Sequence record: MH051918
DNA length: 50,048 nt
Direction: 5' to 3' (one strand)
DNA from: Escherichia phage vB_EcoS_IME347
In this document: piece by piece, positions 19-48,876 of the stretch
How positions within the stretch are numbered: the stretch's first letter is position 1
How the letters are laid out: each line of letters opens with the position of its first letter
Translations under genes and position numbers: made by a program
The notes under the pieces: model-generated
What the model was told of the DNA's origin: nothing
Databases searched by the model: none
What the model saw: the letters and a program-made list of their open reading frames with translations, nothing else

Positions 19-36
19 TTTAGCAAAAAGTGCTAT
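19..36 (-). promoter_or_regulatory. box copy without a canonical -10 partner inside the window
   Basis: The plus strand reads TTTAGCAAAAAGTGCTAT, identical to copy 49862-49879. The expected -10 position would fall left of base 1. Confidence 0.4.
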
Positions 37-4654: not shown

Positions 4655-4694
4655 CACGAATTGCTAAAACAATAATCCGGGGCTATGCCATAAT
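4651..4694 (+). promoter_or_regulatory. box/-10 promoter cassette
   Basis: Box ATAGCACGAATTGCTAAA. Inverted repeat GGGGCTAT/ATAGCCCC. 22 nt spacing to TGcCATAAT (hexamer 4689-4694). Confidence 0.65.
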
Positions 4695-4725
4695 AGCCCC
4701 ACACCAAACGAAAGAGGAAGTAGAT

Positions 4726-14987: not shown

Positions 14988-15464
14988 ATGGCAATTGCAG
15001 CAAGCTATCAGAAAGATATGTCTATCGCCGTTCCGGGTATGGTGGCAGACACCTCCCGTTACAACATCGACGGCGCTTGCGTACTGAGCGGTGACGTTGA
15101 TATCCTCGTCGGCGTTGCGGTTCAGGTTGACAACGTTCAGGCCGTTGACGGTCACAAAGTCATGAAGCCTATGGCATCCGGCGGCAAGGCTTATGGTGTG
15201 GCGATTCGCTCCCACTTCCAGACTAAAGGCAAAGATGGTCAGATGTACTATGAAGCGGGCGGCGGCATTAACGTAATGACCTCCGGGCGCGTTTGGGTTA
15301 TCTCCAAAGATTCCACCGCTCCGGCGTTTGGTGAAACTGTCAACTTTGACGTTGACGGACAGCAGAAAGCAGACGGCGCGATCGAAACCGCATGGACTTA
15401 TGCGGGCGGCTTCACTACCTATCAGGATTTGAAGCTGGTTGAAATCCAATTGCATCAACTGTAA
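14988..15464 (+). CDS. head decoration/cement-like protein, paralog A, 158 aa
   Basis: Track ORF with an AAGGAG RBS. Shares YNIDGACV, GVAVQV, GRVWV, (A/S)PAFGE and AGGF with the next gene. Lies between the scaffold and capsid genes. Confidence 0.6.
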   Translation: MAIAASYQKDMSIAVPGMVADTSRYNIDGACVLSGDVDILVGVAVQVDNVQAVDGHKVMKPMASGGKAYGVAIRSHFQTKGKDGQMYYEAGGGINVMTSGRVWVISKDSTAPAFGETVNFDVDGQQKADGAIETAWTYAGGFTTYQDLKLVEIQLHQL

Positions 15465-16092: not shown

Positions 16093-16120
16093 TTGACGCT
16101 TTAACAAAAAGTGCTATCAT
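16093..16120 (+). promoter_or_regulatory. sigma70-like promoter TTGACG-16-TGcTATCAT (capsid gene)
   Basis: TTGACG at 16093-16098 and TATCAT at 16115-16120. The predicted +1 (~16127) lies inside the 5' arm of terminator 16121-16148. Confidence 0.55.
16100..16117 (-). promoter_or_regulatory. inverted box copy forming the spacer and TGn of the capsid promoter
   Basis: The plus strand reads TTTAACAAAAAGTGCTAT, embedded in TTGACG-16-TATCAT. Confidence 0.5.
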
Positions 16121-19907: not shown

Positions 19908-19925
19908 TTTAACAAAAAGTGCTAT
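19908..19925 (-). promoter_or_regulatory. inverted box copy upstream of the tail chaperone gene
   Basis: The plus strand reads TTTAACAAAAAGTGCTAT followed by CAC, giving TGcTATCAC. Lies 24 nt before ATG 19949. Confidence 0.45.
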
Positions 19926-35798: not shown

Positions 35799-35816
35799 AT
35801 AGCACTAATTGCTAAG
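35799..35816 (+). promoter_or_regulatory. box copy between two leftward genes, abutting the tail fibre RBS
   Basis: ATAGCACTAATTGCTAAG on the plus strand. Read leftward, it is CTTAGCAATTAGTGCTAT followed by TTACTTGGAGG and the ATG. Confidence 0.4.
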
Positions 35817-35879
35817 CACCGATTTTATCATTGTGGTATGCGCCCGGCAATAGGGCAATAAAAAACCCGCCGAAGCGGG

Positions 35880-36824
35880 TTAGATTAAATCCGATGCCTG
35901 ATAAAGCTTGCGTTCCATTCCTGACCGGAAACCTCCCGGATTCGGGATTATCACCTTCAACTCCCGATCGTCCGCCATATACAGAGCTTCCTTATCATCC
36001 GGCGAACATGCAACGCGCAACTCCCTTCCTCCTCTGTACCTGTATGCAACCATTTCCAGATTGGCAGGGGTGAAGCACGTCCACACCTCCTGCCCCGTCG
36101 CAAGGTGTACTCGCTGCGAGTCAATCCAATCAACGCAAAGGTAAATCGCCTTCTCAGTAGAACCTGTCACGGCAACCGATCCGGCAGTGTGCTTCCTTGC
36201 ATAGAACGACTGCTCCCCCTCCTCATTAATGAATAGGATATTGCAAAACTCGTCGTCCAATTCATCTTCATGAACAAGGTGGCATGGAATGGCATGAATT
36301 ACCGATTCTCCGCCATTCTCCAGCGACTTCACGCCTACGGAGTACATCTTATCATCTGGTAGGAAGATCCCCTCATACGTGCTCAGTGGCGTCGTAGGGC
36401 GTAGTTCTGTCCTTTCCATTACAGCCGCGCAAGCCTCATGCTCTGCGATCGCAGCATTCACTACGGCAACCGGAGTGCGGCGAGCCTTTTTATTCGCCTT
36501 GACAATATACTCCTGCGGAACTTTACCCAAGAATCTCCCGGCAATATTGATTGCTTCGCTGTAGTCAGACCCGGAGAGTTTCATTAGCCAGCCGATACCC
36601 GTGTCGTTACCGCACGAGTTGCACACCGCGCCGCCGTCGCCCGGCTCATTTAGTTTATCAGTCCAGCGAAATCGATCTTTACCTCCGCAGTTTGGGCAAG
36701 GCTGGTGTTTCTTGTTAAAAACGTCGTTAGGTAGTCCGCAAACACTCTGCAAGATCTCACGCCACAGCCCTTTCATGTACGGAAGAACATCTTCTTTCTG
36801 GTACTGCATAAAGTTCTCGTTCAC
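35880..36824 (-). CDS. DNA primase (zinc-ribbon + Toprim-like), 314 aa
   Basis: HQPCPNCGGKDRFRW...CNSCG is a P4-alpha-type primase zinc ribbon. GTG start after GGAGA. Cassette 36857-36900 upstream. Confidence 0.75.
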   Translation of the reverse strand: MNENFMQYQKEDVLPYMKGLWREILQSVCGLPNDVFNKKHQPCPNCGGKDRFRWTDKLNEPGDGGAVCNSCGNDTGIGWLMKLSGSDYSEAINIAGRFLGKVPQEYIVKANKKARRTPVAVVNAAIAEHEACAAVMERTELRPTTPLSTYEGIFLPDDKMYSVGVKSLENGGESVIHAIPCHLVHEDELDDEFCNILFINEEGEQSFYARKHTAGSVAVTGSTEKAIYLCVDWIDSQRVHLATGQEVWTCFTPANLEMVAYRYRGGRELRVACSPDDKEALYMADDRELKVIIPNPGGFRSGMERKLYQASDLI

Positions 36825-36839
36825 TGAATTATCTCCAAT

Positions 36840-36873
36840 AAAAAACGCGTAACAGGAGTTTACCCGCTACGCG
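36840..36873 (-). terminator. terminator-like hairpin enclosing the primase -10
   Basis: Read on the minus strand: CGCGTA, a 16-nt loop, TACGCG, then T6 and ATTGGAG. Confidence 0.45.
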
Positions 36874-36900
36874 CTTTTGTGTTTTAGCTATTTGTGCTCT
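36857..36900 (-). promoter_or_regulatory. box/-10 promoter cassette (primase)
   Basis: Read on the minus strand: AGAGCACAAATAGCTAAA. 22 nt spacing to TAAACT. The hexamer lies in the loop of CGCGTA/TACGCG, which is followed by T6. Confidence 0.55.
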
Positions 36901-37327
36901 CGACTTCATCCTTTCGAACTACGCGCATGAACTTGCGGTTCTTGCATCGTTTTTCAAGGCACTTTCCGTTAGAGTCGAACTTGAGATCGAATCGCAGCCA
37001 GCTTGCGCGATACCCGGTACAACCCTGACGACGATACGCGCGATGCGCCGCCTCCGCTCCCTGCCAAGAAATCATGCCGCGAACTTTCCATTCGTTCACA
37101 TTCTGATTTGTTACCTTCAGGGCTTTCGCCGTGGCGGAGGGGGAGCCGTAGAATTCGATCAGGGCGTCAAGTCTGGCGCGTAGTCCGGCGCGAACCTCAT
37201 CTTTCAGGATGTAGAATCCGCATCGCTTGCGAGGCTTTACATCTTTGCCCCGTCGTGTACCATTGTTCCCGTTCAGGTGACGACGATCGATTTCCCCGGT
37301 TGATTCTGCAATACGCTTGATTGTCAT
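36884..37327 (-). CDS. HTH DNA-binding protein (YdaS/Cro-like) with basic Cys-containing C-terminus, 147 aa
   Basis: SATAKALKVTNQNVNEWKVRGMISWQGAEAAH resembles the YdaS/Cro-type HTH. Its last codons (AGC ACA AAT AGC TAA) form box 36883-36900. Confidence 0.55.
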   Translation of the reverse strand: MTIKRIAESTGEIDRRHLNGNNGTRRGKDVKPRKRCGFYILKDEVRAGLRARLDALIEFYGSPSATAKALKVTNQNVNEWKVRGMISWQGAEAAHRAYRRQGCTGYRASWLRFDLKFDSNGKCLEKRCKNRKFMRVVRKDEVESTNS

Positions 37328-37340
37328 AATAAATTCCTCA

Positions 37341-37383
37341 ATAGCACTTTTTGTTAAAACTAACTAATCGATGCGTGTATTAT
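37341..37383 (+). promoter_or_regulatory. box/-10 promoter cassette (helicase)
   Basis: Box ATAGCACTTTTTGTTAAA. 21 nt spacing to TATTAT (37378-37383). Inverted repeat GCGTG/CGCAC. Confidence 0.55.
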
Positions 37384-37387
37384 ACAG
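37379..37387 (-). promoter_or_regulatory. CTGTATAAT -10-like nonamer (leftward, HTH gene)
   Basis: Reverse complement of ATTATACAG. Overlaps the rightward TATTAT of the helicase cassette. Confidence 0.4.
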
Positions 37388-37420
37388 TCAACGCACGAGT
37401 AACGCAAAGGATTAAGAACA

Positions 37421-39472
37421 GTGAAAATCACCCAAGAGACACGAGAGTATTTCCGCACTCAAAACATTAAAAAACAGATCGCAATGCTCGGGGAGGATTA
37501 CATCCGACGCACTCAGGAGCGCTTCCGGGTTGGCGATATCACCCCTTACGAATATCAGGTTGCGGCATACTTTGAGATCGCGAAGCGACTCGGGAAAGAG
37601 TACGAACATCCATTTTACGTAAAAGCCTCAGTATCTGCGGGCAAGACGATTATCTTCGCGATGGTGGCGAAACAATGTCAGGCGATGGGGCTGAAAATGC
37701 TCGTTCTCGCTCGTCAAGGTGAGATTGTGGATCAGGACAGTGAGGAGATTGACAACTTCGGAGTTCCGAATTCCATCTTCTCCGCATCGCTCGGAATCAA
37801 GTCCTGCCACTTCCCGATCGTGGTTGGCTCCGAAGGTACTGTAGGCAATGGCCTGTTCAATGAGTTATCCGATTTTGTCCCGCACGTAATCGGGATCGAT
37901 GAATGTCACCAAGTCGATTGGGAGGACGTGGCGAAGGCGATCGAAGGCAAAGAGTCCTATGCGCAAATGACCACGGATAAGGGATCTATCGTAATGGACG
38001 GCGATATTCCTCTGATTGGTGATGATGGATTGCCAGTTACCGGAACGAAGCGTTCTCAGTACACCGTAATCATCGTCGAAATGATGCGCCGTTGCCGGGA
38101 GAGATACGGGCATGAGTTGCGCGTGTTTGGCATGACGGGATCGGAGTATCGCGGCGTCGTTCCAATTCTCGTTGAGAACAAAAAGCTCGTTGGCTTCTGG
38201 CGTGAGCAGGTGACGAACATTGACACGAACTACCTGATTGAGTTCGGCTCAGTTGTCCCAACCGTGTTTGGCTCAACCGAGGGGGTTCATTACGATCTCG
38301 ACAAGTTCAAGGCGAGCGCCGAAGATGGTGTGTCGGACTTCTCAGAGAAAGAAATGAAGGCGATGGAGGCCGAAATCGTCAAGGATAAATCCTTGACCGA
38401 GAAGATTATGAAGATGGTTGCGAAGGAGGCGGAGAAGCGCAACGCCGTGCTTATCACCTGCGCCGGGCAGCGCCATTGCAAAGAAGCTGCGGCGGCATTG
38501 CCGCCGGGAAGCACTTACGCGATCATTACGGACAAGACAAGCCCGAAAGCACGACAGAAGATTTTGGACGACGTTCGCGCCGGGAAAATCAAGTACACCT
38601 TTCAGGTAATGGCGTTAACGACGGGCGTAAACGTTCCGAATTGGGACTTCTCCGTTATCCTACGCAAGATCGGCTCGCTGACATTGCTGATTCAGCTTTT
38701 AGGGCGCGGAATGCGACTGCTGAAGAAATGGCAAATTGAGCAGGGAATGGTTAAGACTGACCATCTTGTATGGGACTTCGCCGGAACTATGGACGAGTTG
38801 GGGCAGCTTTATTTCGATCCAATTTTGGAACAAGCTCAATATCAGCGCCGTTTCGAAAACGGGAAAGACCCGAAGAAATGCGAATTATGCGGTCACGAAA
38901 ACAGCTTCTATGCGCGTCGTTGCGTGAACGTTATCAACGGCCAGCGCTGTGAGCACTTCTGGACATATCAGACCTGTGAAGATCAGGTAGACGAGAAAAC
39001 AAACAAGGTTCTCGTTAAGGGCTGCGGGGCGAAAAACGACGTGGTAGCGCGTGTTTGCCGTTGCTGTGACGTATCGCTTGTCGATCCTAACCTGAAGTTA
39101 TCCGGCAAGGCGTACACGAAAAACGATTGGTACGACGTGAAACACTTCGAAGTTAAGTTGACGAAAAACCAAAAGGGGATAATATTCCATTACGTCCTTG
39201 ATAATGGCGAGGGTGAATTTAATGCATACGAAAAATTCTTCCCGGAGTCCGATGCGAAAGTGTGCGGGACGCTGTGGAAAACGAAAGGTGTATTGCCGCA
39301 CGTATTCGATCCGAAGATGCGCAAATACTTCATTGGGATGAAGAAAGCAATCAAGATCCTGCAATACGCACACCACATTAAAGCGCCTGTTAGAGTCACT
39401 CACCGCCGCAACGCGAAGAAAGAGGACTTAATCAGCCGCAAAGATTTCGGAATGGAGGAAATTCCAGAATGA
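37421..39472 (+). CDS. SF2 DNA helicase with C-terminal zinc ribbons, 683 aa
   Basis: Walker A in SVSAGKT and DEAH-like motif II in GIDECH. Motif VI region LLGRGMR. C-terminal CELCG...C..C and CRCC clusters. GTG start. Confidence 0.85.
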   Translation: MKITQETREYFRTQNIKKQIAMLGEDYIRRTQERFRVGDITPYEYQVAAYFEIAKRLGKEYEHPFYVKASVSAGKTIIFAMVAKQCQAMGLKMLVLARQGEIVDQDSEEIDNFGVPNSIFSASLGIKSCHFPIVVGSEGTVGNGLFNELSDFVPHVIGIDECHQVDWEDVAKAIEGKESYAQMTTDKGSIVMDGDIPLIGDDGLPVTGTKRSQYTVIIVEMMRRCRERYGHELRVFGMTGSEYRGVVPILVENKKLVGFWREQVTNIDTNYLIEFGSVVPTVFGSTEGVHYDLDKFKASAEDGVSDFSEKEMKAMEAEIVKDKSLTEKIMKMVAKEAEKRNAVLITCAGQRHCKEAAAALPPGSTYAIITDKTSPKARQKILDDVRAGKIKYTFQVMALTTGVNVPNWDFSVILRKIGSLTLLIQLLGRGMRLLKKWQIEQGMVKTDHLVWDFAGTMDELGQLYFDPILEQAQYQRRFENGKDPKKCELCGHENSFYARRCVNVINGQRCEHFWTYQTCEDQVDEKTNKVLVKGCGAKNDVVARVCRCCDVSLVDPNLKLSGKAYTKNDWYDVKHFEVKLTKNQKGIIFHYVLDNGEGEFNAYEKFFPESDAKVCGTLWKTKGVLPHVFDPKMRKYFIGMKKAIKILQYAHHIKAPVRVTHRRNAKKEDLISRKDFGMEEIPE

Positions 39473-48798: not shown

Positions 48799-48832
48799 TG
48801 CCTTAATCTCCGTGATTCGTTTCGATGGGGTA

Positions 48833-48876
48833 ATTATGCCAAACTACCCCGATCGCGTTTTAACAAAAAGTGCTAT
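48833..48876 (-). promoter_or_regulatory. box/-10 promoter cassette
   Basis: Read on the minus strand: ATAGCACTTTTTGTTAAA. Inverted repeat GGGGTA/TACCCC. 22 nt spacing to TGgCATAAT. Confidence 0.65.

Follow-up and report, generated by a model that had tools for sequence, protein, structure and literature searches.

The spacer between the regulator and helicase genes

The DNA analyzed here (the window, 50,048 nt) is record MH051918 of Escherichia phage vB_EcoS_IME347, the genome of a T1-like siphovirus (Drexlerviridae, Tunavirinae). Its nearest relatives are the Sertoctavirus phages BrunoManser, SRT8, and IME-JL8, at ~78 to 82% nucleotide identity; T1 and the window are ~75% identical. We focused on the 93-bp spacer at 37328-37420 between two divergent genes, 36884..37327 (-), encoding a Cro-like helix-turn-helix (HTH) regulator, and 37421..39472 (+), encoding a helicase. 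The spacer is AT rich (33% GC), and it contains one copy of a repeated box and an AT-rich segment that can be read as a -10 element on either strand. As judged from comparison with its relatives, it is a new, deeply conserved phage example of a symmetric bidirectional promoter that carries an activator site of the marbox type. The features on which this reading is built are as follows:

36884..37327, minus strand: Cro-like HTH regulator gene, an open reading frame (ORF) of 147 aa, the first gene of the leftward unit
Complement of 37325-37327, minus strand: ATG start codon of the HTH gene, as read from the sequence
37334..37339, minus strand: Shine-Dalgarno (SD) sequence of the HTH gene, GAGGAA, 6 nt ahead of the ATG, with the box 1 nt away
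37341-37358, plus strand: box ATAGCACTTTTTGTTAAA (18-mer; to 37360 with AC), a marbox-type repeat in forward orientation for the helicase promoter, at about -49..-30
37372, minus strand: predicted leftward start, from the hexamer position, 18 bp from the rightward start
37378..37383, plus strand: rightward -10 hexamer TATTAT (helicase), 19 nt after the 18-mer box
37379..37384, minus strand: leftward -10 hexamer TATAAT (HTH gene), a 6/6 match, offset by 1 bp from the rightward hexamer
37390, plus strand: predicted rightward start, an A after C, 7 nt past the hexamer, with C-A enriched there in 21 lineages
37402..37407, minus strand: TTGCGT, candidate -35 of the leftward promoter, 17 nt from TATAAT and overlapping the helicase SD region
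37406..37411, plus strand: helicase SD AAAGGA, 9 nt before the GTG, with AAGG kept in relatives
37421..39472, plus strand: superfamily 2 helicase gene, 683 aa, GTG start (Pfam Helicase_C and ResIII; phrog_16)

An earlier, sequence-only reading of this DNA had placed a rightward TATTAT within 37378-37387, the box at 37341-37358 (+), and the HTH SD sequence next to the box, all of which we verified on the sequence. It had also called the two promoters face-to-face. They instead overlap back-to-back: transcription is predicted to start at 37390 (+) and 37372 (-), and the transcripts do not overlap. For the HTH gene the box is inverted: its 18-mer core would occupy ~+15..+32 of the predicted HTH transcript, and 1 nt separates its 5' edge from the HTH SD sequence.

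The box is a marbox-type repeat that heads most transcription units

The 21 nt at 37339-37359 that contain the box, caATAGCACTTTTTGTTAAAA, fit the consensus aaATAGCACnnnTTGnTAAAA of the 21-nt direct repeats of phage TLS and lie 80 nt before the helicase GTG. The TLS repeats are intergenic, run along transcription ~76 nt before the start codon, and are also found in T1, Rtp, and Rogue1; their function was left open, with a stoperator, an enhancer, or a UP element suggested (PMC11447400). We found that this element resembles a host regulatory site: ATAGCACTTTTTGTTAAAAC fits the marbox/soxbox consensus AYNGCACNNWNNRYYAAAYN (PMC2064960, PMC3709825) at 13 of the 14 specified positions, the sole miss being position 19. 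The marbox identity of the Drexlerviridae repeat and the shared -10 element appear to be new, not previously recorded, and we found no link between T1-like phages and mar/sox/rob in the literature, subscription journals being outside coverage. The sequence-only reading had missed the host marbox match; it had also missed that the repeat (PMC11447400) and the leftward promoter of T1 (AY216660.1) are already on record.

The 18-mer box has 9 matches in the window at ≤3 mismatches, where 0.02 are expected. With the degenerate 18-mer AYNGCACNNWNNRYYAAA, 26 perfect and 5 one-mismatch sites were found (31 sites versus 1.65 expected), falling into TTTTT, GAATT, and AAATA subtypes. The 18-mers start at the following positions, each given with its strand:

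First part of the window: 19-, 969+, 1234+, 2251+, 2585+, 2952+, 3641+, 4651+, 5471+, 5977+, 7174+, 7642+, 9581+, 16100-, 19908-, 26080+
Remainder of the window: 30111-, 32687+, 35799+, 36883-, 37341+, 39882+, 40901+, 41232+, 42878+, 46621-, 47123-, 47667-, 48859-, 49498-, 49862-

Most of the 31 repeats face a downstream gene, and nearly every early/replication transcription unit is headed by one. The box at 19-36 (-) lies at the left window edge, and its cassette is cut, with the -10 and the start beyond the end. The positions that are invariant among the 31 copies (A1, G4, C5, A6, C7, G13, T15, and A16-17) are all specified in the marbox consensus, while the variable positions 3, 8, 9, 11, and 12 correspond to N there. 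Variation at positions 10 and 14 is limited to W and Y, and position 2 stays within the marbox degeneracy in 28/31 copies.

The distance from the box to the -10 element is also that of a host activator site. Class II marbox promoters have a forward site over the -35 position, centered near -41 (-41.5 for the micF soxbox), with little or no -35 and a normal -10 element. Of 30 evaluable cassettes, 25 have a good -10 element 19 to 21 nt past the box, and in 22 of these the gap is exactly 20 nt. The same scan on E. coli MG1655 put micF ACAGCACTGAATGTCAAAAC 20 nt from TAGAAT and gave gaps of 19 nt for fumC and 20 nt for inaA. In cassettes with the 20-nt gap, nothing resembling a -35 is present 16 to 18 nt from the -10. 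The spacer box has the class II orientation and position, with its GCAC end distal, its position relative to +1 resting on the predicted start.

Several other identities of the box were considered and set aside. TTGTTA lies 21 to 22 nt from the -10 element, too far for a sigma-70 -35. In the sigma-54 pattern (TGGCAC-N5-TTGC), the GC dinucleotides would be 2 bp too close, the window copy has GT, and the conserved -10 at 20 nt would be unexplained. A T4 MotA box does not fit by its position relative to the -10, and an L5-type stoperator does not fit a gap to the -10 that is fixed (19 to 21 nt in 25/30) in a family that is virulent.

It is conceivable that the box is bound by a phage protein, chiefly the Cro-like HTH protein, which would activate or silence the 31 cassettes and autoregulate via the inverted copy in its own leader; stoperator or enhancer roles were proposed by the TLS authors (PMC11447400). 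The regulator gene and the box are adjacent and co-conserved in 79/79 loci from related phages (see below), divergent regulator/target layouts are common, and the HTH protein is the best-annotated regulator of the genome, matching phrog_2856 "transcriptional regulator" at 5.9e-73 and, weakly, Pfam P22_Cro. Its AlphaFold model (pLDDT 84.5) has all-alpha Cro proteins as top PDB matches, namely, Xfaso-1 Cro (3bd1) and N15 Cro (6on0/2hin), and the modeled protein is a single-HTH Cro fold, not AraC-like. Such a fold suits palindromes, as a dimer, whereas the box is asymmetric and bipartite. Moreover, the 13/14 marbox match together with variation that follows the marbox degeneracy would be a coincidence of ~1 in 10^5 to 10^6, the fixed 20-nt gap, as in micF, fits an activator on polymerase but not a stoperator, and the box and the phage HTH protein do not covary, the GCAT variant described below being confined to the spacer copy. 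We consider binding by a phage protein unlikely.

An improbable alternative, in our estimation, is that the cassettes are activator independent, with polymerase reading the box either through the C-terminal domain of its alpha subunit (alpha-CTD), as a UP-like element, or as an odd -35, and with the marbox likeness unused. The resemblance to a UP element was remarked on by the TLS authors (PMC11447400). The box is T/A rich (TTTTT..AAAA), a TGn-extended -10 is present in 51/125 cassettes, and TTAAAA-18-TATTAT in the spacer cassette is a 9/12 match. That T1 grows well without stress induction also speaks for this explanation. UP elements are A/T-rich alpha-CTD sites at ~-59 to -38, upstream of a -35 element; the box, at about -50..-33, stands in place of the -35 and carries an invariant GCAC and G13, which are foreign to UP elements. 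In the 20-nt cassettes, TTGYTA and TTAAAA are 22 and 19 nt from the -10, respectively, beyond the reach of sigma region 4, and the GAATT subtype lacks the T-tract, yet all of its marbox positions are retained.

A single -10 element is conserved for reading in both directions

The segment 37378-37387 is TATTATACAG, and its reverse complement is CTGTATAATA. Within it, the heptamer TATTATA (37378-37384) holds both hexamers, with A(-11) of one pairing with T(-7) of the other; opposite-strand hexamers paired at positions 2 and 6 are what defines a symmetric bidirectional sigma-70 promoter. In bacteria, such promoters have divergent starts 7 to 25 bp apart (modal distance, 18 bp), hexamers offset by 1 bp form the commonest class, with 18 bp between the starts, and -10 symmetry makes ~19% of E. 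coli start sites bidirectional (10.1101/2020.01.31.928960). The longer leftward reading CTGTATAAT is not a canonical extended -10, its TG abutting the hexamer rather than lying at -15/-14.

From the window alone, the argument against chance is modest: the spacer is AT rich, and an A directly after the hexamer is seen in about one in five of the other cassettes too. The 50 kb contain 13 exact copies of TATAAT, both strands counted, or ~0.012 per strand per 93 bp. A repeat finder run on the spacer returned short repeats only. The helicase leader contains a direct repeat, AACGCA, at 37390-37395 and 37401-37406, which is related to CAYCGAAACGAA, an initial transcribed motif found after the -10 of many cassettes, e.g., at 48816-48832 (-).

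The relatives are more informative. While a single-protein query gave 1 locus, an alignment of 31 HTH-protein homologues led to 80 related loci, of which 79 were usable; from these, 21 lineage representatives were taken that are <80% identical to each other after the box. The box lies beside the HTH ribosome-binding site (RBS), and a TATTATA-type heptamer follows 19 to 21 nt past it, in 79/79 usable loci, with a few one-base or shifted variants of the heptamer. In every lineage examined the box is forward for the helicase gene and inverted and adjoining the RBS for the HTH gene, as the sequence-only reading had described it in the window. The sequence between and around the box and the heptamer differs completely among lineages, and the HTH protein is down to ~50% identity. 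In the 21 lineages, each heptamer column carries 1.45 to 2.0 bits and the flanks carry ~0 to 0.8 bits.

Conservation extends to bases that matter to the leftward reading alone. Of the 21 lineages, 16 have TATTATA, the other 5 are one base off, and none has TATAATA, so that the perfect 6/6 reading is the leftward one; the fourth base of the heptamer is T in 20/21 lineages, which is consensus leftward and nonconsensus rightward. A37384, outside the rightward hexamer, is kept in 20/21 lineages. We compared the spacer cassette with 80 other cassettes taken from the same genomes: A at -6 is present in 17/19 lineages in the spacer cassette versus 15/80 other cassettes (Fisher p = 1.2e-8), and T at -9 is present in 18/19 versus 19/80 (p = 1.0e-8). 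As read from these base frequencies, the comparative data show selection on both the rightward and the leftward readings, which bears out the claim that one AT-rich segment serves as the -10 both ways, and the relatives are decisive in showing that the shared element is more than chance.

A leftward -35 element can be recognized in the same alignment. A TT-initial hexamer lies 16 to 18 nt from the leftward -10 in 20/21 lineages (e.g., TTGCGT in the window, TTGAAT in T1, and TTGTCA in another group), with a mean of 3.76/6 matches versus 2.57 for random sequence of the same composition. The AA at 37406-37407, which gives the TT of the -35, is conserved in 21/21 and 20/21 lineages at a fixed distance from the heptamer; it is better conserved than the GG of the helicase SD sequence and is retained in lineages in which the SD sequence has moved. 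The T1 GenBank record (AY216660.1) lists TTGAAT-17-TATAAT, at the homologous position, as a minus-strand promoter predicted by computation; the leftward promoter in T1 is already on record, as a prediction only. Upstream of the HTH gene, room is limited to the 93-bp spacer, and a promoter scan found no second minus-strand promoter-like site in 36500-38000.

These observations bear on the possibility that only the rightward promoter is real and that TATAAT arises leftward as a by-product of the symmetry of -10 elements, the HTH gene being transcribed from elsewhere or very weakly. TAnnnT followed by A always reads as an opposite-strand -10, the very symmetry that makes ~19% of E. coli starts bidirectional, and the leftward -35 of the window matches at just 3/6 positions. 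Such a by-product would not account for the A at -6 and the T at -9 being kept in the spacer cassette only (p ~1e-8), for the TT-initial -35 at fixed spacing in 20/21 lineages, or for an HTH gene with neither other upstream space nor a nearby minus-strand promoter-like site, and we find this explanation highly doubtful. It is also very unlikely that the Cro-like protein shuts both promoters at an operator formed by TGTATTATACA, the near-palindrome that surrounds the heptamer, although such a role is compatible with a bidirectional promoter: TG precedes the heptamer in 14/21 lineages, CA follows it in ~9 to 10/21, and Cro-type proteins often autoregulate at sites over -10 elements, but the half-site centers are ~6 bp apart, too near for a dimer of HTH proteins, TG and CA on the two flanks are far less conserved than the heptamer, and elsewhere in the window the palindrome is not above chance (5 matches versus 1.8 expected, two of them being the site itself).

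A model for competition at the shared promoter

We favor, as reasonably probable in its entirety, a model in which a class II-marbox helicase promoter competes with a conventional regulator promoter at a single bidirectional sigma-70 spacer. The spacer would be one bidirectional promoter kept throughout the T1-like phages, with its starts back-to-back. Its leftward arm, TTGCGT-17-TATAAT, would be a conventional, activator-independent promoter for the Cro-like regulator. Its rightward arm would be one of ~31 standard phage cassettes, with a forward 18- to 20-bp box over the -35 position and a -10 element at 19 to 20 nt. The box, by sequence a class II marbox, would most likely recruit polymerase via a host activator of the MarA/SoxS/Rob type (RamA in some hosts); a phmmer search of all window ORFs found no MarA/SoxS homologue with approximate query sequences. 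The shared -10 would hold one polymerase at a time, so that strong activation of the helicase gene would leave less regulator transcription, and the reverse would apply when the activator is scarce.

Only one polymerase is likely to be engaged at a time because both promoters need the same 7 bp and their predicted footprints (~37335-37410 rightward and ~37352-37427 leftward) overlap almost entirely, with ~37352-37410 in common. At the E. coli PacrA/acrR promoter, SoxS activation of acrA represses acrR via polymerase competition at a shared -10, and SoxS does not block elongation (PMC12825309). The mutual exclusion put forward in the sequence-only reading would thus be physically expected at the phage spacer from the overlapping footprints, and it has been demonstrated at PacrA/acrR; a roadblock in the HTH leader, set up by a factor bound to the box, is unlikely, because bound SoxS does not block elongation at PacrA/acrR. 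The close fit of the box against the HTH RBS probably reflects compaction, and the idea of a switch heading the replication module is speculative.

A number of points weigh against the model. In unstressed cells, MarA and SoxS are scarce and Rob is largely inactive, and T1 is fast growing in ordinary cultures, with no stress induction. Many cassettes with strong or TG-extended -10 elements may act without an activator. The spacer cassette itself has TTAAAA (4/6) at the end of the box, 18 nt from TATTAT because its gap is 19 nt and not 20; TTAAAA-18-TATTAT (37354-37383, +) scores 9/12 as a plain promoter. The leftward -35 of the window has only 3/6 matches, and helicase translation signals could explain part of the leftward -35 conservation. 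Marbox position 19 is A, not Y, although micF likewise has A. The box in the spacer is GCAT rather than GCAC in several independent lineages (L003 at 2488-2505, which is BrunoManser, and L026, L028, L057, L062, L065, and L074), the other boxes there keeping GCAC. The DNA target of the Cro-like protein could lie in the spacer region. Basal bidirectional promoters in E. coli are too weak to compete, competition being seen only on strong activation, and the searched literature contained no start-site, footprint, or expression data for any T1-like phage.

Two of these features may have consequences of their own. The TTAAAA-18-TATTAT sequence may give the helicase promoter basal activity without an activator, and GCAT in the spacer box could weaken the site on the helicase side in this copy specifically.

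Neighboring genes and other cassettes in the window

The helicase gene is the first gene of the rightward replication/recombination block, which includes a VRR-NUC-type nuclease and a Dam methylase. On the other side, the HTH gene is followed by the next cassette:

36883..36900, minus strand: marbox-type box overlapping the HTH stop codon, followed by a strong T-run hairpin and the primase gene

The hairpin after this box (36840-36900, minus strand; -23.4 kcal/mol, z = -6.8) has a T-run and encloses a -10-like hexamer, TAAACT, and the T1 record annotates a terminator at the position equivalent to this hairpin beyond the HTH gene. Since the cassette and the T-run hairpin, and then the primase gene, follow its stop codon, the HTH gene looks monocistronic. 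The structure at 36840-36900 (-) would be HTH-gene terminator and primase-gene promoter cassette at once. No RNA family matched 36800-37700 in Rfam at E ≤ 1, and GC skew at the spacer gave no origin signal, only the change expected from gene orientation.

Hairpins are a feature of other cassettes as well. In the 42 nt past each forward box (e.g., 2603-2644, 4669-4710, and 48817-48858 [minus strand]), 21/26 cassettes have a GC-rich hairpin that lies after the box and before the start site (mean z = -3.5 versus shuffles), and its loop often contains the -10. No such hairpin is present in the helicase cassette (z = -1.6). Because this hairpin-less cassette is also the sole one without a co-oriented upstream gene, the hairpins may act on read-through RNA.

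Backward boxes were found at other sites. A strong promoter of the ordinary type at 16093-16120 (+), TTGACG-16-TGcTATCAT (10/12), precedes the major capsid gene (16168) and has a backward box, 16100-16117 (-), in its spacer; T1 annotates the homologue of this promoter at 15062-15089. In the MarA-repressed rob promoter of E. coli, a backward marbox lies between the -35 and the -10. A primase-gene terminator (35881..35864, minus strand) is followed by a minus-strand promoter-like site, 35850..35822, before the tail-fiber gene, and a backward box, 35799-35816 (+), lies just downstream of this site, the same backward-box-in-leader layout as in the HTH gene. The box at 19908-19925 (-) is directed away from the plus-strand structural genes, with its 5' edge 10 nt from the SD sequence of a gene at ~19943 (+); it mirrors the HTH layout, but its -10, TACAGT, has no good opposite-strand reading.

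Comparison with known systems

T1 is a classic T phage whose transcription program is essentially unmapped, and the 2024 TLS re-annotation identified three ordinary promoters only, leaving the 21-nt repeat unexplained (PMC11447400). The element that we describe is the same; that paper does not have the marbox match, the fixed -10 spacing, or the sharing of a -10 with a divergent regulator gene. Reading the repeat as a class II marbox makes transcription of the T1-like family concretely and cheaply testable.

Other phage-wide boxes offer partial parallels. Like the MotA box of T4 middle promoters, the repeat is an asymmetric box that replaces or accompanies the -35 throughout a phage, and like L5 stoperators, it is oriented with transcription. 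MotA boxes are centered near -30 and require phage MotA and AsiA, and stoperators have no set distance to the -10 and are bound by the repressor of a temperate phage. The spacing of the phage cassettes fits neither.

The host promoters micF, fumC, and inaA are closer in form: they have the same consensus in forward orientation, 19 to 20 nt from core to hexamer, and a good -10, and the phage variant ACAGCACGAATTGCTAAAAC closely resembles micF ACAGCACTGAATGTCAAAAC. Little or no -35 is present in these host promoters or in the 20-nt phage cassettes; the spacer cassette has TTAAAA 18 nt from TATTAT. They differ in that the host sites are degenerate single copies belonging to a stress regulon, whereas the phage has ~31 near-perfect copies that head most of its units. 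It is possible, though we put it at somewhat less than even, that T1-like phages have wired nearly all of their early/replication units to host MarA/SoxS/Rob (RamA) via ~30 near-perfect class II marboxes per genome, phage transcription thereby reading the state of the host. Part of this proposal would be the backward copies in or just downstream of sigma-70 promoters, namely, those of the Cro-like regulator, the major capsid gene (16093-16120), and the tail-fiber gene (near 35799-35850). If it is true, phage transcription would read host stress, bile, or antibiotic state, and either competition at the shared promoter or titration of a scarce activator by replicating phage DNA could balance marbox-driven against conventional genes. 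Phage yield could then vary with antibiotic or bile exposure, which bears on phage therapy and on T1-type contaminations.

The symmetric bidirectional promoters of bacteria (10.1101/2020.01.31.928960) share with the spacer the overlapping opposite hexamers and, as predicted for the phage, starts 18 bp apart, and both transcripts would be mRNAs. Those promoters were defined from mapped starts; the phage starts are predicted, and deep conservation there shows selection on both readings in place of incidental symmetry.

The nearest parallel in logic is PacrA/acrR. There, as in the phage, a divergent regulator and its target share part of one -10, a marbox-type site is oriented toward one direction, and this site lies in the path of the regulator transcript. 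In PacrA/acrR, the marbox is upstream, in a class I position, and the regulator, a TetR repressor, acts on that same promoter; in the phage, which is virulent and in which the arrangement is known from sequence, the site is in a class II position and the regulator is Cro-like. Of all the cassettes, only the one in the regulator/helicase spacer has its -10 in common with a divergent promoter of the conventional kind, and this spacer would provide a natural example, in a phage, of the polymerase competition seen at PacrA/acrR.

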